Assembly: GCA_937139365.1 (NCBI GenBank)
Contig: CAKZPT010000090.1
Location: 77,346 to 141,345, forward strand
Direction: 5' to 3'
Source of the DNA: an uncultured bacterium
GTDB taxonomy: Bacteria > Verrucomicrobiota > Kiritimatiellia > PWTM01
DNA: 64,000 bases
In this document: one piece after another, positions 5,993-54,741 of the stretch
How the letters are laid out: each line of letters opens with the position of its first letter
Position numbering within the stretch: position 1 is the stretch's first letter
Translations under genes and position numbers: made by a program
Notes under the pieces: model-generated
Told to the model about the DNA's origin: nothing
The model's input: only the letters and a program-made list of their open reading frames with translations
Databases searched by the model: none

Positions 5993-6074
5993 GTTCCAAA
6001 CATTGGAGCCTAGGTCAGCCGAAAGTTCCAAACCTTGGAACCCCAGCTTGCATGTAGTTCCAATCTTTGGAAGT
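5993..6074. promoter_or_regulatory. Three tandem 7-3-7 palindromes, TTCCAA-N3-TTGGAA, spaced about 30-31 bp apart, 60-140 bp upstream of serA
   Basis: GGTTCCAAacaTTGGAGCC (5993-6011), GTTCCAAaccTTGGAAC (perfect, about 6026-6042) and GTTCCAAtctTTGGAAG (about 6056-6072). Spacing of about three helical turns suggests operators on the same DNA face. Confidence 0.5.
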
Positions 6075-6132
6075 TTCTAGCGGCCGGCAGGTGATGACGT
6101 TCGGGCGGACGGACGCTCACGGAGGCGATGCG

Positions 6133-7725
6133 ATGAAGAAGAAGGTGCTGATCCCGACGAAGCTCGATCGGATCGCAGCGGACATCCTCGCAAGACATGG
6201 CGGCTACGAGGTGGTGCAGGATGATACCGTCGGCTCGGACGAAGATCTCCTGCGTCTGGCGTCGCAACATCCCGACGCCTACGCGCTGATCGTGCGCAGT
6301 GAGCGGGTGACGCCGCAGGTGATCGACGCCGTGCCGGGCCTGAAGGTGATCATCCGCGCTGGGGCGGGGGTCAACACGATCGACACACGATACGCACGCC
6401 GGAGGGGAATCGATGTGATGAACACGCCCGGCGCCAACGCCAACGCCGTCGCCGAGGAGGTCATCGCGTTGGTGCTGGCGGACATGCGCCAGATCCTGCA
6501 AGCCGATCCCTCCTGCCGGGCCGGTCGCTGGGAAAAGAAGGCGTTCATGGGGCGCGAACTGGCCGGGAAGACCGTCGGCATTGTTGGCCTTGGCGCCATC
6601 GGGCGGCTTCTGGCCCGCCGCCTCAGCGGGTTCGACTGCCGCCTCCTGGGCTATGATCCCTTCGTTTCGCCCGACCTGGCCGCCGAGGTCGGCGTCACTC
6701 TGACCGACCTGCCGGCGTTGTTCGCCGAATCGGACGTCGTCAGCCTCCACCTGCCCGAAAACGAAACCACCCGCGGCATGGTGAACCGGGACCTGCTCGG
6801 CCGGATGAAGAGCGGGGCGATCCTCGTGAACTGCGCCCGCGCCGGCATCCTCGTCGAAGCCGACCTGCGCGCGATCAAGGCGGAGAAACAACTGCGGTTC
6901 CTCAACGACGTCTACCCCAAGGACGTCGAGGGTCCCAAGTCCGTCGCGGACATCGCCGACCTGATGATGCCGCATCTGGGCGCCAGCACGCGCGAGGCCA
7001 ATCAGATGGCCGCCCGCCGCGCTGCAGAGCAGCTCATCGAGTTCGACGACAAGGGCATCACCTCCTACATCGTGAACCGCGACATCCCCGAGGGGCTCGA
7101 CCGCTCGTTCGCGGACCTCGCCTTCCGCCTGACGCGGCTGTGCCGGGCGCTGGCCGGCCCCGACCGGCCGCTGAAGATGATCGAGACCAGCTTCTACGGC
7201 AGCCTCAAGCCGTTCGCGAACTACCTGATCGTCCCGATCGTCGCGGCGCTGGACGAATCGTTCGACCGCTCGATGGACCCGGGCGCCGCCCGTCGACTCC
7301 TGGCGGAGCGCGGCATCGAGTACGTGGACCGCGTGACGGACGACCGCAAGGGATACCAGAACTCGATCACGGTGGACCTGACCGTGGACCGCGGCGGCGG
7401 CGCCCTTCAGCGCACCAGCGTTCGCGGGACCGTGACGGAAGGAGCCCTGATGGTCTCCCGCGTGGACGATTTCCATAAACTCTATTTCGAGCCGAGCGGC
7501 CACCTGGTCGCGTTCGCTTACGCCGACCGGCCGGGCGTGATGGGGCAGATCGGTGCCATGCTGGCGCAGGCCGGCATCAACATCGACGATATCCGCAACC
7601 CCCACGATTCGACCGGGGCCAACTCCATCGCGATCCTGAAGGTCAATCAGCCCGTCCCGGCCGACACGGTCCGCCAAATCGCGGATCGGATCCAAGCCAC
7701 GGTGAGCTGCGCGGTCACACTCTGA
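6133..7725 (+). CDS. serA: D-3-phosphoglycerate dehydrogenase with C-terminal ACT domain
   Basis: Rossmann motif GIVGLGAIG. It has 2-hydroxyacid dehydrogenase catalytic and nucleotide-binding domains and a C-terminal ACT regulatory domain. The likely start is MKKKVLIP, which has a GGAGG Shine-Dalgarno. The track ORF starts at 6067. Confidence 0.9.
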   Translation: MKKKVLIPTKLDRIAADILARHGGYEVVQDDTVGSDEDLLRLASQHPDAYALIVRSERVTPQVIDAVPGLKVIIRAGAGVNTIDTRYARRRGIDVMNTPGANANAVAEEVIALVLADMRQILQADPSCRAGRWEKKAFMGRELAGKTVGIVGLGAIGRLLARRLSGFDCRLLGYDPFVSPDLAAEVGVTLTDLPALFAESDVVSLHLPENETTRGMVNRDLLGRMKSGAILVNCARAGILVEADLRAIKAEKQLRFLNDVYPKDVEGPKSVADIADLMMPHLGASTREANQMAARRAAEQLIEFDDKGITSYIVNRDIPEGLDRSFADLAFRLTRLCRALAGPDRPLKMIETSFYGSLKPFANYLIVPIVAALDESFDRSMDPGAARRLLAERGIEYVDRVTDDRKGYQNSITVDLTVDRGGGALQRTSVRGTVTEGALMVSRVDDFHKLYFEPSGHLVAFAYADRPGVMGQIGAMLAQAGINIDDIRNPHDSTGANSIAILKVNQPVPADTVRQIADRIQATVSCAVTL

Positions 7726-7911: not shown

Positions 7912-8868
7912 CTAACCGATGCCCTCGAAGAGCACGGTCGAGAGGTACCGCTCGCCCGCGTCGGGAAGCACCACGACGATCGTCTTGCCGGCTGCGGCCT
8001 CTTCGCGCGCCACGCGCAGCGCCGCCGCGACCGCCGCGCCGCAGGAGATGCCGCCGAGGATCCCCTCGTCGCGCGCCAGCCGCCGCGCACACTCCACGGC
8101 CTCGGCGCTGTCCACCTGCTCGACGCGGTCCACAAGCGAAAGGTCCAGGACGTCCGGGATGAAGCCCGCGCCGATGCCCTGAATCTTGTGCGGGCCGGGC
8201 TTCAGCTCCTGGCCGGCCAGCTTCTGCGAGATCACCGGGCTTTCGCGCGGCTCGACGGCGATCGACACCAGCGGGCGGCCGAGCGTCTTCTTGATGTAGC
8301 GCGACACGCCGGTGATGGTTCCGCCGGTCCCGACGCCCGAGACCAGGAAATCGACCTGTCCCCCGGTGTCGTTCCAGATCTCGGGGCCGGTGGTGGTCTC
8401 GTGGATGCGCGGATTGGCGGGGTTTTTGAACTGCTGCGGCATGAAGTAGCGCCCGGGATCGGAGGCCGCGATCTCCTCGGCGCGCCGGACGGCGCCGCGC
8501 ATGCCCTCGGCGCCGGGCGTGAGCACCAGCCGCGCGCCGAACATGGCGAGAACGCGCCGGCGTTCGAGGCTCATCGTCTCGGGCATCGTCAACGTCAGCG
8601 GATACCCGCGGGCGGCGCAGACGTACGCCAGCGCGATGCCCGTGTTGCCGCTCGTCGGCTCGATGATCTCCATGCCCGGCTTCAACACGCCGCGCTTCTC
8701 GGCGTCCCACACCATGGCGGCGCCGATGCGGCACTTCACCGAGTAGGCCGGGTTGCGGCCCTCGATCTTCGCCAGCACCGTCGCTTTGAGGCCCGCCGCT
8801 AAGCGGTTGAGCCGCACCAGCGGCGTGCGCCCGATGGATTCCGAATTGTCGGCGTAGATCTGACTCAT
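7912..8868 (-). CDS. cysK: Cysteine synthase A (O-acetylserine sulfhydrylase)
   Basis: The PLP-lysine motif is in [17 protein letters not shown] and [10 protein letters not shown] are the glycine-rich loops of the fold-type II family. The real start is MSQIYADN at 8868; the track ORF is extended upstream. Confidence 0.9.
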
Positions 8869-10052
8869 GTCGCGTCTCCCTTCGCGGATCGCCCGGTCGT
8901 CGGGCCGCCGCCCGCGGCCGCCAACGCCTGGTCCAGGTCCGCGATCAAATCGTCCGCGTGCTCGATCCCGACCGACAGCCGCACCAGCCCCTCCCCGATC
9001 CCGCGGCGGCGCCGCTCGGAGGGCGGGATGGCGGCGTGGGTCATCCGGGCCGGATGGCAGACCAGCGACTCCACTCCGCCGAGGCTCTCGGCGAGGAAGA
9101 ACAGCCGCAGCGCGCCGACGAACCGTTCGACGGCCGGAAATCCACCGGCCAGCTCGGCGCTGACCATGCCGCCAAACCCCCGCATCTGCCGCCCGGCGAG
9201 GGCGTGCTGCGGATGGTCGGGCAAGCCGGGATAGTGCACGCGCTCGACCGCCGGGTGCGCGGCGAGAAAGTCGGCCACACGTTGTGCGTTCCGACAGTGC
9301 GCCTCCATCCGGAGGGCCAGCGTCTTGAGGCCGCGCAGGGCCAACCAACAATCCCACGGCCCCGGCACCGCGCCGACGGCGTTCTGATGCCATTTGAGCT
9401 TTCGGTGCAGTTCGGGATCGGTCACCACGACCGCCCCACCGATCAGGTCGCTGTGGCCGCCGAGGTATTTGGTGGAGCTATGCACGACGAGATCCGCCCC
9501 CAGCTCCAGCGGCCGCTGGAGCCATGGGCTGGCGAAGGTGTTGTCCACCGCGACCCGCGCCCCACATCGGTGGGCGGCCTCCGAGACCGCGGCGATGTCG
9601 GCCAGCCGCAACAAGGGGTTGGTGGGCGTTTCGAGCCACACCAACCGCGTGTCGTCGGTCAACGCCGACAGGAAGGCCTCCGAGTCCTCGGCCGGGGCAT
9701 AGTCGATGCGCAAGCCCCACGGTCGGAAATGGCGTTCGAACAGGCGGTAGGTTCCGCCGTACAGGTCGTCGCCGGCCAGCACGCGGTCGCCCGGCCGCAG
9801 AAGGCTCAACACCGCGCTCGTCGCCGCGACGCCGGAGGCGAACGCCAGCCCGTGCGATCCGCCCTCGAGCGAGGCCAGGGCCGTCTCCAACGCGCGGCGC
9901 GTCGGGTTGTCGGTCCGGGAGTACTCGTAGCCGCGGGGCCGCCCGATCCCGTCCTGCCGGAACGTCGAGGTTTGGTACACCGGCACCGTCACCGCCCCGG
10001 TGAGCGGGTCCGGCTCCTGTCCATCGTGGATGGCCCGGGTCTCGAACCTCAT
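8865..10052 (-). CDS. Cystathionine gamma-lyase or gamma-synthase family PLP enzyme. In this context it is most likely reverse-transsulfuration CGL.
   Basis: AIHDGQ...YSRTDNPTR...[16 protein letters not shown] (the PLP Lys is in STKY). It is 395 aa, starting at MRFETRAIH. There is an ATGA overlap with the upstream CBS stop. Confidence 0.8.
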
Positions 10053-11443
10053 ACGCCCGCCCCCCAGCCGTCCAGTACCGGCCGCCCGTTGCGGACGATC
10101 ATTCGGTCGATGACGTCCATCCGCGTGATCACCCCTTCGCCGAGGCCGGCGCGGGTGACGAGCACCGCCGGCGCGCCGGCGAGAAACAGGCGATAAGCTT
10201 CCGACACCTCCACGGCCGCGTCCAGCTCCGGCAGAGGACGGCCCATCACCGCCGACACCTCCTGGTTGACCAGGTCGATGCCGTCGAACACCAGTTTCAT
10301 CACCGTGGACTCGTTGAGGCAGCCGACCGCGCGGCCGCCGTCCATCACGGGAAGCTGGGAGATGTTGTACGTGTGCATCAACTGCACGGCCCGGCGCAGC
10401 CGGTCGCGCGGCGATACCGCGACCAGCGGCGGCAGCACCTGTTTGGCTTGGAGCACTTCGCCGACGGTGATCCGCTCGCCGGCGGGCCCGTCCCAGAACC
10501 CGTGTTCGCGCATCCAGTCGTCGCTGTGGCACTTGCTCAGGTAATTGCGGCCGGTGTCCGGCAGCAGCGCTACCACCAGCCGCGGCGCGGGCAAACGCTG
10601 CGCCACGCGCAGCGCGGCGGCCACGGCCGTGCCCGACGAGCCGCCCGCGAGCATCCCCTCCTCCCGCGCCAGGCGGCGCGCCGTGCGGAAGGACTCGCGA
10701 TCGCTGATCCGCACCATCTCGTCCACGACCGGCCGATCGAAGGTCCGCGGCACAAAATCCTCCCCGATGCCCTCGACGAGATAGGGGCGGGGCGAGTCGC
10801 CCGAGAGGATCGAGCCCTCCGGGTCCGCCCCCACCACCAGGATGTCGGGGTTGCGCTCCTTGAGGTAGCGCCCGACGCCCGAGATGGTGCCGCCCGTGCC
10901 CATGCCGGCGACGAACACGCCGATCCGGCCACCGGTCTGTTCCCAGATTTCGGGGCCGGTCGACCGGTAATGGGTGGCGGGGTTTTCGCGGTTCGCAAAC
11001 TGGTTGGGGCGCCACGCCCCCGGGATCTCGCGGGCCAGCCGGTCGGCCACGCCGTTGTAGCTTTCGGGCGAGTCGGGCGGCACCGCGGTGGGGGTCACCA
11101 CGACCTCGGCCCCGTAGGCCTTGAGCAGGCGGACCTTGTCCTCGCTCATCTTGTCCGGTAGGACGACGATCAGGCGGTAGCCCTTCACCGCGGCCGCCTG
11201 GGCGAGGCCGACGCCGGTGTTGCCGGCGGTCGCCTCGATGATCACGCCGCCGGGGCGCAGTTCGCCGGCGCGCTCGGCGGCCTCGATCATGGACAGCGCG
11301 ATCCGATCCTTCACGCTCCCGCCGGGGTTGAACATCTCCGCCTTCACATAGATCGTCGAGGGCAAACCGGCCGCCAGCCGTCGCAGCCGGATCAGGGGTG
11401 TGCGGCCGACGGCCTCCAGAACGCTGTCCAGCATGCCGCTCAT
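10049..11443 (-). CDS. Cystathionine beta-synthase: a fold-type II PLP domain plus a C-terminal CBS domain pair
   Basis: GSVKDRIA...ATAGNTGVGLA...GMGTGGTISG is a CysK/CBS-family catalytic core, followed by about 130 aa of CBS domains. The start is MSGMLDSV. There is an ATGA overlap with the osmC stop. Confidence 0.8.
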   Translation of the reverse strand: MSGMLDSVLEAVGRTPLIRLRRLAAGLPSTIYVKAEMFNPGGSVKDRIALSMIEAAERAGELRPGGVIIEATAGNTGVGLAQAAAVKGYRLIVVLPDKMSEDKVRLLKAYGAEVVVTPTAVPPDSPESYNGVADRLAREIPGAWRPNQFANRENPATHYRSTGPEIWEQTGGRIGVFVAGMGTGGTISGVGRYLKERNPDILVVGADPEGSILSGDSPRPYLVEGIGEDFVPRTFDRPVVDEMVRISDRESFRTARRLAREEGMLAGGSSGTAVAAALRVAQRLPAPRLVVALLPDTGRNYLSKCHSDDWMREHGFWDGPAGERITVGEVLQAKQVLPPLVAVSPRDRLRRAVQLMHTYNISQLPVMDGGRAVGCLNESTVMKLVFDGIDLVNQEVSAVMGRPLPELDAAVEVSEAYRLFLAGAPAVLVTRAGLGEGVITRMDVIDRMIVRNGRPVLDGWGAGV

Positions 11444-45599: not shown

Positions 45600-46343
45600 A
45601 TGCCGCCTGCGGGCGCGGGAGAGCCGCGCGCCGCGGCGGTCCCCGAACACCCGCCCAACCAAAACGAGGCGCCCGTGAACCACCGTTGCCCGCCCTCTCC
45701 CGACGATGTGCATGTCCCCCTTTCCGCCGTTCTGGCCGTCGCGACGTACGTCGCCGCCCAGATGCTCTCCGACATCGCGAGCCTCAAGATCGGCATCGTC
45801 TGGGGCCATGCCGTGGACATGGGCACGTTCATCTATCCGTTGACCTTCACGCTGCGGGACTTGGTTCACCGGGCGCTTGGCCGGCGCGCGGCGCGGTGGC
45901 TGATCGTCGCGGCGGGGGCGATCAACCTGTGGATGGCGGCCTACCTCCGCTGGGTGGCGGCAGTGCCTCAGGATCCGGCATGGGGCCTTGGGCGGGAATT
46001 CGCGGCAGTGCTGACGCCGGTCTGGCGCCTTGTACTGGCCTCGATCGCGGCGGAGGTCGTCAGCGAGCTGGCCGACACGGAGATGTACCACTGGTTCGTC
46101 ACTCGTGTGACACGCCGGCATGCGTGGGCGAGGGTTGTGGTCAGCAACGCGGTCTCGATCCCGATCGACAACCTCGTCTTTTGCCTCGGCGCCTTCGCCG
46201 GCGCGCTACCGGCACGCTCGATCACGGAGATTTTTCTTCTGAACCTCTACCTGAAGCTGGGCGTGACATTGGTCGGGGTGCCTCTGATCTACCTGGTGAG
46301 GAAAGACGCCGCCGTGGGACGGGGGCAGGGACGCGCAGGATAG
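45600..46343 (+). CDS. Queuosine-precursor transporter (YhhQ/DUF165 family) membrane protein
   Basis: Multi-pass membrane protein with ...IVWGHAVDMGTFIYPLTFTLRDLVH...SIPIDNLVF. The true start may be an internal GTG near 45702. Confidence 0.55.
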   Translation: MPPAGAGEPRAAAVPEHPPNQNEAPVNHRCPPSPDDVHVPLSAVLAVATYVAAQMLSDIASLKIGIVWGHAVDMGTFIYPLTFTLRDLVHRALGRRAARWLIVAAGAINLWMAAYLRWVAAVPQDPAWGLGREFAAVLTPVWRLVLASIAAEVVSELADTEMYHWFVTRVTRRHAWARVVVSNAVSIPIDNLVFCLGAFAGALPARSITEIFLLNLYLKLGVTLVGVPLIYLVRKDAAVGRGQGRAG

Positions 46344-46353
46344 GGGCGCCGGC

Positions 46354-47742
46354 TTATTCGTCCGGTCCGCCCGCCAGTTTCCGGTAGAGGGTGGTGAGGC
46401 TGATCTTCAGCGCGACGGCGGCGGCCTCCTTGTCGCCGCCCATGCGGTCGACGACCATCTGCACGTATTCGCGCTCCTTCTGGCGGAGGAACGCCTTGAG
46501 GGACCGGCCGCGGAAATCGGCGGGGGAGGAAAGCGTCTCCGACGTGGAGGCCGAGGCCTGCACGGAGGCGCCCTCGCGAACGCGCGCCGGCAGGGTGTCG
46601 AGGGTGATGGTATCGCCGTGCATGAACGTCAGCGCGTGGCGGATGGCATTCTCGAGCTCGCGGACGTTGCCGGGCCAGCGGTAGCTTTCCAGGGTCCGCT
46701 CGACGGCAGGATCGAGTTTGGGCAACGGCGCGCCCGCCGGCCGCTCGCGCTGCAGAAAATGCCGTACCAGCGGCACGATGTCCTCGCGGCGCTGACGCAG
46801 CGGAGGCAGCCAGATCGGGATCACGTTCAGGCGGTAAAAAAGGTCTTCGCGGAACCTCCCCGCCTGGATGCCCGCCTCCAGCGGCTCGTTGGTGGCCGCG
46901 ATCACCCGCACATCCACCGGTCGGGCCTCGGTGCCGCCGACCTTGCGGACGGTCTTGTCCTGCAGCACGCGGAGGAACTTGGCTTGGATGCTCAACGGCA
47001 TTGCGCCGACCTCGTCGAGGAAGATCGTCCCTCCGGAGGCGGCCTCGAACAGACCGTCCTTGTCCGCCACCGCCCCCGTGAAGGCGCCACGGACATGGCC
47101 GAACATCTCGGATTCGAGCAGGGGCTCGGGCATGGCTGCACAGTTGATCGGCACGAACGGCCGAGCGCGGCGGTGGCTCATTTCGTGGATCGCGCGGGCG
47201 ACGACCTCCTTGCCCGTGCCGCTCTCGCCGGTGATCAGCACCGTCTCGTCTGAGGGTCCGAGCCGCCGGACCATTTCACAGACCTGCCGCATCGCCGGGC
47301 TTTCGGCGATTAGTGCGGCGGGCCCGAAACGGGTCGCGATCTCGTCCCGCAGCCCCTTGTTCTCCATCAGCACCATGCGGTAGCGAAGGGCCCGCTGGAC
47401 GGTCACCAGCAGTTCGTCCATTTTGAACGGCTTGGTGCAATAATCGAACGCCCCCCCCTTCATCGCCTCCACGGCGGTCTTCACCGAGCCGTAGCCGGTC
47501 AGGAGGATCACTGGCGTGTACGGACGGACCTCGCGCGCCCGCTCCAGCAGTTGAAGACCGTCCACCGGCTCCATGCGGATGTCGGCAAGGATGAGGTCGA
47601 AGTCCTCCTGCTGGAGTACCGCAAGGGCCTTCTCGCCGTCGCCGATGGGTGTCACCTCGTGCCCGTTACGACGCAGGGTCGCCGTGAGCACGCTCAGGAC
47701 CGTCGGCTCGTCGTCCACCACAAGAAGTCGTGACATGGCCAT
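46354..47742 (-). CDS. Sigma-54-dependent Fis-family response regulator (NtrC-like enhancer-binding protein)
   Basis: Receiver domain LLVVDDE...DLILADIRM. AAA+ sigma-54 interaction domain with GESGTGKE, and the GAFTGA motif in GHVRGAFTGA. C-terminal Fis-type helix-turn-helix. The start is MSRLLVVDD or MAMS. Confidence 0.85.
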   Translation of the reverse strand: MAMSRLLVVDDEPTVLSVLTATLRRNGHEVTPIGDGEKALAVLQQEDFDLILADIRMEPVDGLQLLERAREVRPYTPVILLTGYGSVKTAVEAMKGGAFDYCTKPFKMDELLVTVQRALRYRMVLMENKGLRDEIATRFGPAALIAESPAMRQVCEMVRRLGPSDETVLITGESGTGKEVVARAIHEMSHRRARPFVPINCAAMPEPLLESEMFGHVRGAFTGAVADKDGLFEAASGGTIFLDEVGAMPLSIQAKFLRVLQDKTVRKVGGTEARPVDVRVIAATNEPLEAGIQAGRFREDLFYRLNVIPIWLPPLRQRREDIVPLVRHFLQRERPAGAPLPKLDPAVERTLESYRWPGNVRELENAIRHALTFMHGDTITLDTLPARVREGASVQASASTSETLSSPADFRGRSLKAFLRQKEREYVQMVVDRMGGDKEAAAVALKISLTTLYRKLAGGPDE

Positions 47743-47894
47743 TCCCCGTAGATTCGCAATTCGCGAATGCGGCGGCATCAGCCCCGCATTTCATATGCTA
47801 TCACTGTTATGCAGTTCTGCAAAGATTTTTTCAGCTTTGACCGGCCTCGGACCGGCGGAGCATGGCGGATCTGAAAACTGTGGCCTACGGAGAA

Positions 47895-47910
47895 CGGCAC
47901 GGTTGTTGCT
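47895..47910 (+). promoter_or_regulatory. Candidate sigma-54 (-24/-12) promoter
   Basis: cGGCACGgttgTTGCTg matches TGGCACG-N4-TTGCW with correct GG/GC spacing. It is about 90 nt upstream of the hypothetical gene at 48001. It is divergent from the enhancer-binding-protein gene. An ATTCGCGAAT palindrome (about 47772-47781) lies roughly 115 bp further upstream and is a candidate enhancer. Confidence 0.5.
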
Positions 47911-48000
47911 GTATACGCGTCGGACATGTGATCAGGTTCGCCATGGTTCCGGTCCGGGTGTATTGTGGGAAGCGCGAGGCTGAGGTCACTGTCCGTGAAG

Positions 48001-48414
48001 ATGTACGTGCCCGACGACAAAGGCCGCCAGCCGCCAGACCGCGCGCTGGATCTGGACGACGTCCAAGATCAGTCGCTCGACTCGCTGGTGGAGATGTTTT
48101 GGACGATCGAGGACGCGCTCGGGCATTATTCCAACGTCGTCCGGCTGCCCTGTCGCCTGTTCCTCGAGGACCTGCCCCAGGAGCTTCGGGGACCGAACTG
48201 GGCCGGCGGAAGTTTTCCCGAGGTGGTGATCGAGGTGGACCCTTGGGATCTCCTTTGCAAACTGAAAATGGGGCGGGTGACCTACCCCCTGGCTCGCATC
48301 ATCCACGATATCCCCCCGGGGTGGATTCAGGGGCCGCCGGACGCGGAGATCGCGCTGGCCTCAAACAAGGTGATCGCCGAGCTGCCCGAACATTTGCGCT
48401 CGGCACTCGCATGA
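48001..48414 (+). CDS. Hypothetical protein (138 aa). First gene of the putative sigma-54 operon.
   Basis: Strong GC3 codon bias. I recognise no family. Its TGA stop overlaps the next ATG (ATGA). Confidence 0.5.
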   Translation: MYVPDDKGRQPPDRALDLDDVQDQSLDSLVEMFWTIEDALGHYSNVVRLPCRLFLEDLPQELRGPNWAGGSFPEVVIEVDPWDLLCKLKMGRVTYPLARIIHDIPPGWIQGPPDAEIALASNKVIAELPEHLRSALA

Positions 48415-49105
48415 GGCCGAGGGTCGTGCGAATCCACGCCTACGTCCTGGGCGCGGCCTTGGCCGTGGCAGGGGGCCCGGCGGAGGACACGTACTTGCGC
48501 GGTACACGAAGGAGTTCGCGGCGTTTCGCGCGTACGACAAGCAGCGCCCCCCGCCGGCCGACCCGATCGTTTTCACGGGCAGCTCCAGCGTCCGGTTGTG
48601 GGCCTCGATGGAAAAGGATTTCCCGGGGCGGCCGGTCCTGAACCGGGGGTTTGGCGGTTCGACCATGCGGGACCTGCTGGCCGCCTTCGACCGCGTGATC
48701 GGAGTGTACCGCCCGGCCGTTCTCGTCGTCTACTGCGGCGAGAACGACATCGCCCTCGGACGCGATCCCATCGAAACGGCAGAGGATTACCGGATTCTGT
48801 TCGAGCGGTGCCGCCGGCTTCGGCCAGACATGCGCATCGCGGTCGTCTCCATGAAGCCGTCGCCGAGGCGCTGGGCGCCGTGGCCACAGATGCGGCGGGC
48901 CAACGAGCGCATCGCCGCGATCGGCTGGGGGTTCGGCGCGGACTTTCTGGACGTCGTTCCCCTCATGCTCACGCCGGCGGGCGAGCCGCGCGGCGAGCTA
49001 TTCCGCGAGGACCGGCTGCACCTGAATGTAGAGGGGTACCGCCTCTGGCGGGAGGTGATCGGCGCATGGCTATCCCGACCGGCGCTCCCCACTGCGGCGC
49101 CGTGA
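48411..49105 (+). CDS. SGNH/GDSL hydrolase with signal peptide, interrupted by an apparent -1 frameshift near 48500
   Basis: Frame A from ATG 48411 gives a signal peptide MRPRVVRIHAYVLGAALAVAGGPAEDTYL. The frame at -1 then continues ARYTKEFAAFRAYDKQRPPPADPIVFTGSSSV (GDS block I), followed by ...RGFGGSTM...VVYCGENDIA...REDRLHLNVEGY (block V D-x-x-H). The track ORF 48596..49105 starts downstream of the catalytic Ser. Confidence 0.55.
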
Positions 49106-49142
49106 GCCGGGATGCCCTCTGGCCGAGCGGAGCGGTCCGGCC

Positions 49143-49868
49143 GTGACGGCGGGCGGTTTCGCGGCCGCAGCAATCGCGGCCCTGTTGACGGGCATGGCCA
49201 AATGCGGCGTGCCGGGCCTCGGCATGCTATCGGTGCCGCTGATGGCCATGGCCCTCCCCGCCCGGGCCTCGGTCGGTGGCATGTTGCCGATTCTGCTGGC
49301 CGGCGACGTGCTCGCCATCGCCATGTACCGGCAGCACGCCCGATGGGACTGGATCGGGCGTCTGGCGCCGTGGGTCGCCCTAGGGCTGGCGGGGGGGGCG
49401 TGGTGGTTGTCCCACCTGTCCGATTCAGAGCTGCGACCACTGCTTGGGATTCTCGTACTGGCCATGGTGGCGCTGGATCTGGCGCGGCGCCGTCTGGACT
49501 GGCATCGTCTCGCCCACCACCCCGCGGCCGCCGCGGTCGTTGGCACCGCGGCGGGTATCGCAACGACGCTGGGCAACGCCGCCGGTCCTGTGATGAACGT
49601 CTATCTCCTCGCCCGCGGCCTGCCCCGCCATCTGTTCGTTGGCACCGCGGCGTGGTTCTTTTTTTTCGTCAACCTGACCAAGCTGCCCGTCTTCATCGGA
49701 CAGCGGATGCTCACTCCCGAGCTGGCCCGGCTGACCGCCCTCACGATGCCCCTTGTGGCACTCGGCGGCTTCGTCGGCCGCTGGCTCCTCGCGCGGCTGC
49801 CGGAGCATGTCTTTCAGCGGCTTGTGCTCGCCCTGTCTGCCCTGGCCGGCCTGCGACTGTTGATTTGA
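49143..49868 (+). CDS. TSUP family transporter (TauE/SafE sulfite-exporter-like)
   Basis: 241 aa, with a 4+4 TM repeat. Conserved glycines are in GVPGLGMLSVPLM and TTLGNAAGPVMNVYLL. Confidence 0.8.
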   Translation: MTAGGFAAAAIAALLTGMAKCGVPGLGMLSVPLMAMALPARASVGGMLPILLAGDVLAIAMYRQHARWDWIGRLAPWVALGLAGGAWWLSHLSDSELRPLLGILVLAMVALDLARRRLDWHRLAHHPAAAAVVGTAAGIATTLGNAAGPVMNVYLLARGLPRHLFVGTAAWFFFFVNLTKLPVFIGQRMLTPELARLTALTMPLVALGGFVGRWLLARLPEHVFQRLVLALSALAGLRLLI

Positions 49869-49918
49869 GGGGATGGAAGGGCGCGACAGGCGTCCGCCCA
49901 CCGGCCGGGCGCTGCGGG

Positions 49919-51207
49919 TCATCGCCTCGCCAAGGCCGCCGGTCGCGCAAGCTCCTCCGCGCGCAGTGCCCGGTCGAAGACCGCGACGCCGCCAATCCAA
50001 CCGGTGAAACCGACACTGCGTGAGCTGTGGATCACGCGCCCGATTGTGAACGGTCCTCCGCTGCCGTCGTCCGGCGGACGGTACACGCCATGCGGGTACC
50101 ACCATGGGTTCAACCGCAGCGCAACCAGGTCGCACGAAAACTCCGTCCAGCGGCCGCCCGACCCCCGGCGCAGCACAACCTCCACCTTCGTGTAGCGGTA
50201 CTCCCTCCGCTCCATCCGTTCGTCGGGCGTCTGGGCGGATCACGGAAACGCGGGCGGGCTCCTCCTCCGGGGGATTGTACCGCTGATCGGCCGGGTATGC
50301 AGGGGCCTCCCCGTCTTGCAAACCGGGACGAGCCGCATAATACCCCTGCATGTAGGCCCGATACGCGGAGAAGATCAGGCGGTCTTCCTTCGGCCGGGCC
50401 AGCCATCGTTCGCCGGCGACTCCGTCGAGCCAGCCGGTGATCTCATCCCGGTCGTCGTCGAACGTCATCGCGAAGCAATGCCATGCGGCGTCGAGCCTCT
50501 CGGGCGGGGCGTCGGCCGGCGTCTCCGGGGCGACTCCGGCCGAGTTGCACTTGTGCAGCGCGTATCGGTTGAGAAACGAGCCGGCGCCGTTGTCCGACAC
50601 GTGGCCGCAGCCGCTACCGGGCACGTTGAGGCCGGCGAACAACGCATACTGCCGCTGGCCGCGCACCGCGCGCACAATGCCCTCTGTCTTCTTCCGGCGC
50701 AGGTCCGTGCCCTCATGCCAGATGCCGGCCAGCGCGTGGTTGCCGCTCTCCCGGATCGCCCAGACGACCACCGTGAGGGACCGGCCGCTCCTCTTGATGT
50801 CCAGCGGGGTGTCGTGTAGCCGCGACCGGGGCACGAACAGGTACGGGCGAAAGGTCGGATCGTCCTCCCGGCGGATCCGGACCGCCTGGCCGAACGGCCC
50901 GCGGCCGAGCAGCGGAAAGTCATCGTCGGCGGCCTCGCCGCCCGACGCCCCAGAACTCCCGGACGTAGTTGCCCGCGTCGAGGGCGTAGTCACAGGGCGA
51001 CCCCGGCGGAACGTGAGCCGTGAAGGGGCGGGCGCCGTCGGGCTCCCGTTTCACGAAATCCCAGAACGCCACCAGCCCGGGCAGGCTCGTGACGACCGTC
51101 ACCGGCGCAGCGGGAGGTGCCGCGTTGGCCGCCAGCGCCAGCGCCGCCGCCACTCCTACCGTTGCGCACCGGGCGCGCGCCCATGCACCGTGTTCCCGCA
51201 GCCCCAT
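49919..51207 (-). pseudogene. Secreted LamG/concanavalin-like domain protein split over three frames (two +1 shifts)
   Basis: N-terminal piece 50920..51207, with a signal peptide and ...NYVREFWGVG. Middle piece in the frame of ORF 49425..50993: EAADDDFPLLGRGPFGQAVRI...DAAWHCFAMTFDDDRDEITGWLDG. C-terminal piece 49919..50215: ...GPFTIGR...FTGWIGGVAVFDRALRAEEL, a classic LamG C-terminus. The junctions lie at GGG/CCC homopolymers. Confidence 0.4.
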
Positions 51208-51250: not shown

Positions 51251-53713
51251 TCAGATGAACAGGGCCCCGCCGGAGCGGTCGGCCTCGGCCAGGAACGTGG
51301 CCACGCCTCCCAATTCGATCCCGTCCAGCAACTCCTCCCTCCGCAGCCCCATCACCTCCATGGACATCGTGCACGCGACCAGCCGCGCCCCGCCGCGGCG
51401 GGCGGAGTCGATCATCTCCGGCAGCGAGGCGACGTTTCGGCTCCTCATCACGTGTTTCATCATCGCGGTGCCCAAGCCGGCCATGTTCAGCTTCGACAGC
51501 TTCAGCGCCTTGGCGCCACTCGGCATCATCATGCCGAACAGCCGGTCCAAGGCCGTCTTTCCTTCCACGGCGGGGGCCGGGGATTTGCGCAGGGCATTGA
51601 GGCCCCAGAACGTGAAAAACATCGTCACGGGCTGGCCCATCGCCAAGGCGCCGTTCGCGATGACGAAGGCGGCGAGCACGCGGTCGAGGTCGCCGGAGAA
51701 GACGATGATCGTCTGGCCGCGCGCTCCCGTCCCGGCCGGTTCCGCCGCGGGGGCCGGCCGCGCGGCGCCCTTGCGGATCCGCGCGACGGCGTGCCCCCCC
51801 TCGTCGACCAGGCTCACCAGTTCATGGCCGTTGCGATCGCACCAGACGGCGACGTCCGATCGGAATCCGGGATCCGTGGCCCGCACGACCATCTCCTGCC
51901 CCGGCGCCATGGCCTCCATCTCCGCCTTGAGTTTCAAGATGGGGCCGGGGCACTGAAGGGCGGTGCAGTCCAGTTCGCGCGCGACGCCGGCGGGCGCTGG
52001 GGGCGCCTCCATTTTTTCCTCCGCGTAATGCAGCGTCGCGGGCGCCGGCCGGTCGAGTTCCGGCCCGAGCGAACGGTGTATGCAGCGGAACGTCAGCAGG
52101 CCGCCGGCCAGCGTCGCGACGTCCGCAAACCCCGACTGCGCGAGGATCCGATAGGCCAGGTAGCTGCGAAACCCGACCTTGCAGTACACGCGGATGGGCT
52201 GGCTCCGGGGCAGCTCGCCCAGCCGGGCGCGCAACTCGCCCAGCGGCAGGTTACGGGCACCGGAGATGTGGCCGGCCTCGAACTCCGCCGGACTCCGGAC
52301 ATCGAGCACCAGCGCGCCTTCCACGGCGCCGGGGTAATCCTCGGCATACCAAAAACGGACATCCCCGCGCAGTAGGTTGGAGGCGACGAACCCGGCCATG
52401 TTGACCGGATCTTTGGCCGACCCGAAAGGCGGCGCGTAGGCCAGCTCGAGGTGCTCGAGGTCGAAGACCGTCAGCCCGGCGCGAAGCGCCGTCGCGAAGA
52501 CATCGAGACGTTTGTCCACGCCGTCGAAACCGACCACCTGGGCGCCGAGCAGCCGTCCCGAATCGGGAGCGAACAACAGCTTGATGTGCATCGGCGAGGT
52601 GCCGGGGTAGTACCCGGCGTGGCCCGAGGGGTGGAGGTAGACCTTGCGGTACGGCAGGCCGGCGCGGAGCAGGTTTTTCTCGGTGGCCCCCGTGCCGCCG
52701 GCGGTCATGTTGAACACCTTGACGATCGCGGTGCCCTGCGTGCCGCGGTAGGCGGAGGTGCGTCCGGCGATGTGGTCGGCGGCGATTCGCCCCTGACGGT
52801 TGGCCGGTCCGGCGAGCGGGATGTTCCACGAGCCGGGCAGCACGGCGTGCGGCGTCTCGACCGCGTCGCCGACGGCGTAAATGGCGGGGTCGGAGGTGCG
52901 CTGGTGCTCGTCGACGAGGATGCCGCCGCGCGGCCCCAACGCCAGCCCGGCCGCGCGGGCCAGCGTCACCTCCGGCCGGACGCCAGCCGCGAGCACGACG
53001 AAGTCGGCCGTCAACACCGTCCCGTTGGTCAGCTCAGCGCTGATCCGGCCGCCAGACGAGGTGCGGAAAGCAGCGGCCGCCGTACCTAGGTGCAGGCGGA
53101 CACCGCGCGCCCGCAAATGGTCCTCCAGGGGCGCGGACATCTCCTTGTCGATCGGCGGCATGATCTGGTCCACCATCTCGACCAGGTCCACCTCCAACCC
53201 CCGGTGGCGCAGGTTCTCGGCCATCTCCACACCGATGTAGCCGCCGCCGATGACGATGGCGCCGCGGGCGCCTCTGTCCACCCGGCGCCGGATCTCGTCC
53301 ATGTCCTCGACGTTGCGCAGGCACAGCACGCGGGGATCGTCGATCCCGGGCAGGTCGGGGCGGACGGGGACGGCGCCGGGGGCGAGCACGAGCACGTCGT
53401 AGGGCTCCTCGTACTCCGCACCGCTGTCGAGGTTCCGCGCACGGATCTTCCGCGCGGTCCGGTCGATCGCCGTCACCTCGTGGCCGACGCGCACGTCGAT
53501 ATTCAGGGAGGCGCGCAGGCCCTCGGGCGATTGGAGCAGCAGCAGGCTGCGGTCCTTGATCACGTCGCCGATGTGATACGGCAGGCCGCAGTTGGCGTAG
53601 GAGACATAGCGAGTGCGCTCGAGCACCAGGATGCGCGCCGACTCGTCGAGCCGTCGGAGCCGGGCGGCCGTCGAGGCTCCCCCCGCGACGCCGCCGACGA
53701 TGACCACGTTCAT
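51251..53713 (-). CDS. Four-domain CoA-disulfide reductase-like flavoprotein, fused to rhodanese, TusA and DsrE-like domains
   Basis: FAD/NAD domain with the CoADR-type redox Cys in SYANCGLPY. Rhodanese CxxGxR motif in YCKVGFRS. TusA CPxP motif in LQCPGP. DsrE/DsrF-like C-terminus with LVACTMS. 819 aa from MNVVIVGG. Confidence 0.8.
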   Translation of the reverse strand: MNVVIVGGVAGGASTAARLRRLDESARILVLERTRYVSYANCGLPYHIGDVIKDRSLLLLQSPEGLRASLNIDVRVGHEVTAIDRTARKIRARNLDSGAEYEEPYDVLVLAPGAVPVRPDLPGIDDPRVLCLRNVEDMDEIRRRVDRGARGAIVIGGGYIGVEMAENLRHRGLEVDLVEMVDQIMPPIDKEMSAPLEDHLRARGVRLHLGTAAAAFRTSSGGRISAELTNGTVLTADFVVLAAGVRPEVTLARAAGLALGPRGGILVDEHQRTSDPAIYAVGDAVETPHAVLPGSWNIPLAGPANRQGRIAADHIAGRTSAYRGTQGTAIVKVFNMTAGGTGATEKNLLRAGLPYRKVYLHPSGHAGYYPGTSPMHIKLLFAPDSGRLLGAQVVGFDGVDKRLDVFATALRAGLTVFDLEHLELAYAPPFGSAKDPVNMAGFVASNLLRGDVRFWYAEDYPGAVEGALVLDVRSPAEFEAGHISGARNLPLGELRARLGELPRSQPIRVYCKVGFRSYLAYRILAQSGFADVATLAGGLLTFRCIHRSLGPELDRPAPATLHYAEEKMEAPPAPAGVARELDCTALQCPGPILKLKAEMEAMAPGQEMVVRATDPGFRSDVAVWCDRNGHELVSLVDEGGHAVARIRKGAARPAPAAEPAGTGARGQTIIVFSGDLDRVLAAFVIANGALAMGQPVTMFFTFWGLNALRKSPAPAVEGKTALDRLFGMMMPSGAKALKLSKLNMAGLGTAMMKHVMRSRNVASLPEMIDSARRGGARLVACTMSMEVMGLRREELLDGIELGGVATFLAEADRSGGALFI

Positions 53714-54741
53714 GGGGCCTCCATGTCTGACCGCGCTGGCACGGAAAAAAAGCATCTCACGATACCGTCACGGAATGAACAGTGCAAATCATCGGCGCGA
53801 CCAGGAGCAGATGAGGGCGGCGGGTCATCGGCCCAATCGCAGAACAATCCGTCCGAGCCCTTGCCCCGGAGCCTACCGTTGGTGACGAGGCGCCGTCGGC
53901 GACCACCCATGTGCCGCGACCGGACCCATCGAGAAAGACCGCCGCCGCCCCCGCGTGGCACGGCCCGGAGGCCGCCAAAGGCGACCGGCGTCGTGCCCCG
54001 AAATCCACGAAAACGGCCCACGATTCGATGTCCGCGAGTGCTGGCCCGTTACCGCCTCCAGTTCGTACCGATCCCCCCACTGCCGGCGCCGATACAGAGA
54101 AAGGCCGACCCGTCCCACGCGGCCGCAGGCGTAGGCCGAACCGACGACCTCGAAACTGTCCCTCCGGTCGCCGTCCATGAACAGCCGAGCGCCGGCGTGC
54201 ACGCCGGCCGCTGAGCTATTCGCGCCGGCAGTTCCGTCGGCCCCGCCGACGTCAGCAAAACGCCCACGCCGCCGACCGGCGCCCCCGACGGCTCGCCGTG
54301 TAGCACGAACCTCAGGTCGGAACCGATCCGTTTCAACACCTGCAGTCCACTCCACCCATCGGCGGCGATGGCGCCGTGGACATGCACGCCACCAAATGTT
54401 GCGCTACCAGCGACCCCACCCTTTCCCAGGCCCGTTCTACGATGGCGGGCTACGCGCGAACACCGCACACGGTAAAGGCCCCCGCCACGCGCCGAACCAT
54501 GATTCGTGCCCGCCCTGCCCTCCCCGGTGCCGGAGCGGATAGCACGGTCCGGTCCAGCCGGGTGTGCGTCCGCCTCCGCGCTTTTTGATGCCGAGTGAAC
54601 CCGCACTGGAACGACAGCCGTTCGAACGACCGGAACCGATCTTGCCGGCTCAACCGCGACGGACAAAACCCGCCTACGCCCACTCAAATGGTCAACTCGA
54701 ATGATCCGGAGCTTCCGCGAAACATCATGCCGACGGGCAGC

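Follow-up and report, generated by a model that had tools for sequence, protein, structure and literature searches.

In a small clade of uncultured Kiritimatiellae, a conserved operon encodes a small cytoplasmic protein without a described family (here called hyp137), an SGNH/GDSL esterase and, frequently, a TSUP (TauE/SafE) membrane permease, and is very probably transcribed from a sigma-54 (-24/-12) promoter. The copy analyzed here lies in a 64 kb stretch of contig CAKZPT010000090.1 (hereafter, the window), beside a divergently transcribed gene for a sigma-54 activator. The explanation that we favor, with moderate confidence, is a conserved sigma-54 operon that is served by the divergent activator and belongs to a pilus-associated regulon. 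The regulatory architecture is textbook and the cargo comes from common superfamilies, with the exception of hyp137, whose domain is undescribed. The window has a G+C content of 69.6%, and its proteins have homologues annotated as Kiritimatiellae, Lentisphaerae or Verrucomicrobiota. It differs at a single position in 12.4 kb from contig DAIUDP010000007.1 of the metagenome-assembled genome GCA_036845605.1. Three near-identical assemblies of the locus (L001-L003; loci carry L numbers throughout) include two from other samples, with a few single-nucleotide polymorphisms (SNPs). Further hyp137 loci were fetched from assemblies and GTDB representative genomes. The operon was found in the lineage groups L004; L005-L007/L015; L008/L009/L014; L010; L011; L012; and L013, and sequence upstream of it could be compared in seven lineages (the window, L004, L005, L008, L010, L011 and L013).

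The strongest evidence concerns the promoter. A sequence-only reading of this DNA had placed a near-consensus sigma-54 element, GGCACG-N4-TTGC, at 47896-47909, about 90 nt upstream of the genes. This element is present (GG at 47896-7 and GC at 47908-9, in the GG-N10-GC spacing) and precedes the ATG at 48001 by 92 nt, with a predicted transcription start near 47921. Candidates were scored against the consensus context TGGCAC-N5-TTGCW, which has 12 specified positions with GG and GC 10 nt apart. A match in a single window is by itself not above chance, as GGCAC-N5-TTGC occurs exactly once in the 64 kb against 0.69 occurrences expected, and 50 of 100 shuffles contain at least one. Conservation across orthologous loci is nevertheless complete: in all seven lineages with upstream sequence, a correctly oriented GG-N10-GC element stands 30-240 nt before the conserved core of hyp137. 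These orthologous elements each match 9-11 of the 12 positions, and the score is 10 or more in four sequence-distinct lineages, despite the surrounding non-coding DNA being essentially unalignable between lineage groups. Other matches scoring at least 10 number only 10 in 173 kb (window and loci, both strands), a background of about 0.03 matches per kb per strand, or about 0.007 per 250-nt upstream window per lineage. Because the element is kept upstream of the orthologue wherever upstream sequence exists, we consider the promoter real. In L005/L015, the public call for the hyp137 orthologue (6001-6591; 196 aa, P0014) begins upstream of the sigma-54 promoter at 6049-6064; accordingly, this call is almost certainly too long, with the true start downstream of ~6075.

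The genes behind this promoter form the predicted plus-strand string at 48001-49868, but the GDSL gene within it is frameshifted. The ATGA overlap suggested between the first two genes is real (48411-48414) and joins the hyp137 stop to the next ATG, but the open reading frame (ORF) opened there is not in frame with the catalytic domain. The hyp137 and GDSL genes adjoin in every lineage, where they either overlap by 4 nt (ATGA type) or are at most 50 nt apart, and the TauE gene follows as the third in five of the seven other lineage groups (L004, L005-L007/L015, L008/L009/L014, L012 and L013). Co-occurrence of the three genes therefore holds for the first pair but fails for TauE in two of the groups: in L010 and L011, the next gene is instead a convergent one for a metalloenzyme. 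Given this absence, hyp137 and the esterase constitute the invariant core and TauE a frequent third member, and the export of a sulfur or acyl compound is weakened as the core function of the operon. The Pfam TauE match of the permease reaches 107.9 bits against a cut-off of 32.6 and spans residues 10-239 of 241. The protein resembles TauE/SafE anion permeases in its full-length match well above the cut-off, and differs from them in that the conserved string holds no sulfonate- or sulfite-metabolism gene and that two orthologous strings lack the permease altogether.

The hyp137 protein combines a variable, disordered N-terminus with a conserved alpha/beta core of ~95 residues, for which the approximate consensus is P..LL..LPE.LRGP.W....FP.....L....LL.QL..GRV.YPL......LP.GW....PDA.VELDL..VV.A.PP. 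Close homologues are confined to 15 homologous clusters among 5.8 billion, and a word-indexed profile search with a broader alignment recovered the same 15 proteins and nothing further. In an exhaustive profile search, 77 cluster representatives matched, and for 70 the E-value was 1e-10 or lower. No counterpart was found in Pfam, NCBIfam or among PDB folds. In hyp137, an undescribed domain thus occurs on its own.

In the window, the esterase gene is split. The ORF that starts at ATG 48411 runs for 76 codons and falls out of frame after its signal-peptide-like segment, and the catalytic domain lies in frame 2. This second frame retains intact blocks I, II, III and V (FTGSSSV, NRGFGGST, CGENDI and DRLHLN), including the catalytic serine motif GSSS at 48578-48589. 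Upstream of the catalytic serine, frame 2 holds no ATG, GTG, TTG, CTG or ATH codon, which rules out an alternative start for the esterase in that frame. Consequently, neither the window nor L001-L003 has a continuous ORF from a start codon through the catalytic serine, and the public gene calls begin at ATG 48608 (165 aa), without the nucleophile. The orthologous esterases of all other lineages are continuous (233-239 aa), with the signal-peptide-like N-terminus in frame, and the intact orthologue in L004 begins at the same 4-nt overlap. Comparison with these orthologues places a 1-nt frameshift at ~48470-48500. The frameshifted sequence is identical in L001, L002 and L003, which differ by SNPs elsewhere; its presence in all three indicates a property of the population as opposed to a one-off assembly error. 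The gene is either a pseudogene, recent in view of its perfectly preserved catalytic motifs, or reliant on a -1 ribosomal shift. For such a shift, a heptamer that is formally slippery, G GGC CCG, occurs in the required register at 48473-48479 and provides the sole, formal support for programmed frameshifting. Judging from the reading frames, the esterase is probably inactive in this organism unless ribosomes shift frame. The nearest solved relatives of the esterase are of the sialate O-acetylesterase/lysophospholipase L1 type (PDB 6njc and 7pzg, E ~1e-7). The esterase resembles SGNH carbohydrate O-acetylesterases in its Lipase_GDSL_2 domain with blocks I, II, III and V and in the signal-peptide-like N-terminus of the orthologues, but the similarity is distant and the ORF in the window is split.

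The divergent gene encodes a sigma-54 activator with a receiver domain, as the sequence-only reading proposed. Pfam matches comprise Sigma54_activat (PF00158; 4.6e-71), Response_reg (PF00072; 3.1e-28), AAA_lid_14 and HTH_8 (PF02954; 1.3e-06); the GAFTGA loop and the Walker A motif GESGTGKE are intact, and the acidic pocket of the receiver and its motifs VVDDEP, LADIRM, LLTGYGS and TKPF are legible in the translation. The likely start is ATG 47736 and not 47778, considering the N-termini of homologues (M[PS][RK][IL]LVVDDEP) and a GGGGA Shine-Dalgarno sequence 6 nt upstream. The protein falls under every NCBIfam equivalog cut-off and is thus an unassigned member of its class. Its family is large, with 5394 proteins at E<=1e-100, and among the best 120 listed, identity declines smoothly from 73% to ~59%.

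The divergent pairing recurs in L010, L011 and L013, where orthologues of 70-72% identity adjoin the operon and the distance from the activator start codon to the -24 GG is nearly fixed (160, 162, 156 and 162 nt in the window and these three loci). L010, L011 and L013 are close relatives that share one flanking context, and it differs from that of the window: on the far side of the activator stand Vut_1 and U32 peptidase genes in the window vs. TrpRS, ScpA and ScpB genes in L013/L010. That four genes are kept together in two flanking contexts supports a functional pairing of activator and operon, and we consider the adjacent activator to be, somewhat probably, the cognate one. It is, however, cognate without being private to the operon. 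In GCA_026417735.1, which carries the L004 operon, the activator orthologue (73% identity) lies on another contig, between apiosidase and esterase genes; L023 presents the same apiosidase/esterase context, and an orthologue of 68% identity adjoins MoxR/VWA genes. No histidine kinase flanks the activator in the window, in L010/L011/L013, in GCA_026417735.1, in L023 or in the MoxR/VWA context. Since the receiver seems fully functional, its phosphorylation must depend on a kinase gene located elsewhere.

More distant relatives bear on the kind of activator that this is. Three activator homologues at 62-63% identity were examined. In Kiritimatiella glycovorans, the homologue follows a PilS-type kinase (6TM_PilS, HisKA) and PilB/PilC-like genes, with T2SSE/T2SSF genes downstream. 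In L021 and L022, MshEN-T2SSE and T2SSF genes stand immediately before it and are themselves preceded by genes for a 210-aa protein with a weak Arf/small-GTPase match (MglA-like) and for Roadblock and PATAN proteins, and a prepilin gene lies nearby. Several members of the activator family are named PilR by JGI, and the recognition helix of the helix-turn-helix, ISL(T/A)TLYRKL, is nearly invariant among the activators compared. A PilR context, in the sense of a PilS kinase and/or a pilus cluster nearby, thus surrounds the 62-63% homologues and is missing from the window. By its sequence relationships, the window activator is PilR-like by descent.

The relatives of hyp137 lead to the same type of neighborhood. 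Most proteins with the hyp137 domain are 400-1100 aa long and carry one to four copies of it, usually near the N-terminus, followed by a Pro/Ala/Glu-rich linker, a ComEA-like HHH_3 domain and often a Roadblock/LC7 (Robl_LC7) domain; one is named "competence ComEA-like helix-hairpin-helix protein" by JGI. In L019, the gene for such a protein adjoins genes for MshEN, Roadblock and PATAN proteins, a receiver-HTH_8 regulator and a 210-aa MglA-like protein. Its counterparts in L021 and L022 share 74% and 60% identity with it, respectively, and the Roadblock proteins are 52% identical. In L020, the multi-domain gene adjoins MshEN and AAA_22 genes similar to those that flank the pilus cluster of K. 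glycovorans. Elements of the sigma-54 type with scores of 10-11 (of 12) lie ahead of both multi-domain genes (L019 6826+, L020 345+), the MglA-like genes (L019 6757-; L021 845+, 845-860; L022 941+, 941-956), a pilin gene (L021 10295+, 10295-10310) and a PilB gene (L018 1767+, 1767-1782). A pilus/polarity neighborhood is therefore the setting in which the hyp137 domain, members of the PilR-like activator family and sigma-54 promoters recur together. Two features of L019 are recorded in their own right. At 6742-6841, two high-scoring sigma-54 elements lie back to back, ~70 nt apart, facing the MglA-like/Roadblock genes and the multi-domain hyp137 relative, respectively, and presumably share enhancer sites. 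At 8562-9131 (-), convergent with and right after the multi-domain gene, is encoded a 189-aa protein with a receiver and a Fis-type HTH_8 domain but no AAA+ domain, like a motorless enhancer-binding protein.

What the sequences show is the conservation of the promoter, the order of the genes and their domains, the frameshift, and the surroundings in which relatives are encoded; the choice of activator, its need for a kinase, the connection with pili and every biochemical role are inferred, as follows. Sigma-54 holoenzyme would bind the -24/-12 element, and open complex formation would require ATP hydrolysis by an enhancer-binding protein, the likeliest being the divergent regulator. Phosphorylated by a histidine kinase encoded outside the locus, in response to a signal likewise from outside, this PilR-like regulator would bind within the shared control region of ~160 bp and remodel the closed complex. 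With the kinase encoded elsewhere, the unit would be the output branch of a larger two-component circuit and not a closed module. One transcript is predicted to span hyp137, the defective esterase gene and TauE. The hyp137 protein might be an adaptor or regulator in the cytoplasm, and envelope functions would fall to the esterase and the permease, an envelope role for the esterase being suggested by its distant relatives among sialate/carbohydrate O-acetylesterases. The neighborhoods of the relatives would place the operon most likely in a sigma-54/PilR-type, pilus-associated regulon of the cell surface, though the link to pili, taken by itself, is tentative and less likely than not. A bolder version may be put forward as speculation: hyp137 could be a new domain dedicated to sigma-54/PilR-controlled circuits of pili and polarity (MglA/MglB-like, PATAN, MshEN) in Kiritimatiellae and relatives. 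It would occur either in fusions with ComEA-like HhH and Roadblock domains or, in this clade, free-standing, from an operon that also expresses a secreted acetylesterase and a TSUP permease, such that in the window a pilus regulator would have been rewired to control a new output, the remodelling of the envelope. We regard this version as possible but rather doubtful.

A number of observations weigh against the account that we favor. The pilus link derives from neighborhoods of distant relatives (~30-40% domain identity) in the two contexts examined, and neither the esterase nor the permease has a known connection with pili. The 64 kb window contains no ORF with an RpoN box (the search for rpoN covered the window only), no kinase and, by tblastn, no homologue of PilS, PilB, PilC, PilT or pilin. 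The activator may be either the sole PilR-like protein of the organism or a paralogue. To these are added the absence of TauE from L010 and L011, the operon copies without an adjacent activator and the failure to recover a shared activator-binding motif, the last two of which are described below.

The most serious competitor, although unlikely, is the one to which the sequence-only reading subscribed: a closed, dedicated module in which a signal sensed by the adjacent activator leads to expression of these three genes alone, whose products would export or modify a small sulfur- or acyl-containing compound. The divergent pairing in four lineages with fixed spacing would fit such a module, as would the identification of TauE as a TSUP permease and of the SGNH domain as an esterase. 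A gene 1.4 kb downstream of TauE would fit as well: at 51251-53755 (-), an 834-aa fusion joins a CoA-disulfide-reductase-like (CoADR) flavoprotein to rhodanese, TusA and DsrE-like domains and looks like a persulfide or sulfur-trafficking enzyme. The proximity of TauE to these domains recalls cst-type sulfide-stress loci. This neighbor is conserved in no other operon lineage, on which ground a cst-like reading as sulfur detoxification was rejected. Moreover, the kinase that the receiver needs is not encoded nearby; the activator lies apart from the operon in GCA_026417735.1, and its context differs also in L017 and L023; TauE is absent from two lineages; the esterase is frameshifted in the window; and a widespread family of PilR-like activators contrasts with 15 close homologues of hyp137. 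Together with the pilus clusters around the 62-63% relatives, the missing kinase and the broken linkage leave little of the claim that the module is self-contained.

It is quite unlikely, but conceivable, that a different enhancer-binding protein activates the sigma-54 operon, while the neighboring regulator controls other targets (e.g., pilus genes) and owes its position to an accident of rearrangement. Three lineages (L004, L005 and L008) retain the promoter with no activator upstream of the operon, so adjacency is not obligatory and another activator could serve the promoter; the 5394 family matches mentioned above indicate that the group encodes many NtrC-class regulators. Furthermore, no conserved binding motif links the promoter regions. 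Across 15 sigma-54 promoter regions, searches with 9-mers allowing one mismatch, inverted-repeat scans, inspection by eye and a test for TGAAC enrichment revealed no convincing shared motif. TGAAC occurs at 4.3 per kb in these upstream regions, only about twofold above the background of 2.0 per kb, and the window has none. L010, L011 and L013 share TGATTATCTCTTTC and (G/A)TGAACA-N7-TGAACA blocks, which are likewise absent from the window. Against a different activator stand the adjacency in two flanking contexts, the start-to-promoter spacing that holds within 6 nt at ~70% identity, and the co-occurrence of the orthologous activator with the operon even where the two are unlinked (GCA_026417735.1). 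As for the remaining alternative, that the -24/-12 match arose by chance and transcription starts from an unrecognized sigma-70-type promoter, the one exact match against 0.69 expected in the window is compatible with it, but the recurrence of the element in every orthologous locus amid otherwise unalignable sequence and the lack of a sigma-70-like site in 46200-50200 render it extremely improbable, and we rejected it.

The palindrome ATTCGCGAAT, previously offered as an enhancer about 115 bp upstream of the -24 element, in fact lies 128-137 bp from the -24 GG and 23-32 nt before the activator start codon. Perfect 10-nt palindromes number 191 in the window, at least one appears in 22% of shuffled copies of the intergenic region (P=0.22), and the orthologous regions of L010, L011 and L013 have no equivalent; we therefore rejected ATTCGCGAAT as an unsupported enhancer, neither significant nor conserved. 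The inverted repeat AATGCGG-N11-CCGCATT is an alternative, unproven candidate, and it has no counterpart in the orthologous intergenic regions. In L022, four GTGAACG repeats situated 118-154 nt upstream of a sigma-54 promoter may be activator sites of that locus. All features are collected in Table 1.

Table 1. Features of the activator-operon locus in the window, with the promoter elements of orthologous loci.
Feature	Position	Strand	Remarks
NtrC-class sigma-54 enhancer-binding protein, PilR-like by homology	46354..47736	-	460 aa
Palindrome ATTCGCGAAT, earlier candidate enhancer	47759..47768	.	in activator 5' leader
Inverted repeat AATGCGG-N11-CCGCATT	47766..47790	.	only inverted repeat >=7 nt in the intergenic region
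Sigma-54 -24/-12 promoter CGGCACGGTTGTTGCT	47895..47910	+	11/12 specified consensus positions; equivalent element in orthologous loci
hyp137	48001..48414	+	137 aa, cytoplasmic, no described family
Frame-0 ORF, signal-peptide-like N-terminus of SGNH esterase (MRPRVVRIHAYVLGAALAVAGG...)	48411..48641	+	starts at ATGA overlap
SGNH/GDSL_2 esterase catalytic domain, frame 2	48491..49105	+	Pfam Lipase_GDSL_2 (PF13472) 2.1e-18
TSUP (TauE/SafE) membrane permease	49143..49868	+	241 aa, Pfam TauE (PF01925) 8.4e-31
Orthologous promoter element, L010/L011/L013: TGGCACGGAAGGTGCT		correct strand	upstream of hyp137 orthologue
Orthologous promoter element, L004: TGGCATGCTAGCTGCT		correct strand	upstream of hyp137 orthologue
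Orthologous promoter element, L005-L007/L015: TGGCACGCGACCTGCT		correct strand	upstream of hyp137 orthologue
Orthologous promoter element, L008/L009/L014: TGGCATACCATCTGCT		correct strand	upstream of hyp137 orthologue

Other possibilities for the locus were considered and set aside. A riboswitch or leader RNA was rejected on the ground that Rfam gave no match at E<=1 in 46000-50200, leader included, and an anti-phage defence system on the ground that PADLOC gave no match for the three operon proteins. Terminator-like matches within the genes look like coding artefacts. Downstream of the operon, a convergent gene at 49919-50993 (-) encodes a protein of ~357 aa without a Pfam family, and the assemblies differ there by an indel near 50234 (~8216-8234 in L001/L002): the gene is intact at 357 aa in L001, is split into 304 + 95 aa in L002 and is called only as fragments in L003, the contig of the window. 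In the window, its frame stays open as far as 49425, with ~440 nt of overlap with the 3' end of TauE.

Placed against known systems, the locus can be compared with the PilS-PilR two-component system, which acts with sigma-54-dependent pilin/pilus promoters in Pseudomonas, Geobacter, Myxococcus and Xanthomonas (e.g., PMC7170775, PMC2725144). The window activator shares the receiver/AAA+/Fis-type helix-turn-helix architecture of PilR and is 62-63% identical to regulators encoded after PilB/PilC-like genes, and sigma-54 elements precede pilin, PilB and MglA-like genes in the pilus loci of relatives. Unlike the PilS-PilR system, the window has no PilS, pilin or pilus gene, and the adjacent target consists of a small unfamiliar protein, an esterase and a permease. 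A second comparison is with the classical divergent pairs of an activator and a sigma-54 promoter, namely pspF-pspABCDE, zraSR-zraP, norR-norVW, rtcR-rtcBA and prpR-prpBCDE. In these pairs, the activator senses its signal directly or through a kinase of the same locus, and the two partners are stably linked. The window shares with them an activator transcribed divergently from a -24/-12 promoter and a common control region that would also permit autoregulation, but it lacks a kinase, and the linkage is broken in sister genomes.

A specialist would not be surprised by such a locus, and its practical value is modest, consisting mainly in the annotation that an orphan family of 15 members and its multi-domain relatives (~77 clusters) receive. 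Nonetheless, sigma-54 regulation in the Planctomycetes-Verrucomicrobia-Chlamydiae superphylum is almost undescribed beyond Chlamydia and Planctomycetes, and a full-text literature search returned no paper mentioning both Kiritimatiellae and sigma-54. With a -24/-12 promoter that is cleanly conserved and an activator that may be cognate to it, the locus offers an entry point to sigma-54 regulation in Kiritimatiellae. It also presents hyp137 as a small, highly conserved and directly testable protein, and raises the hypothesis that proteins of this type may be tied to pilus-associated regulation.

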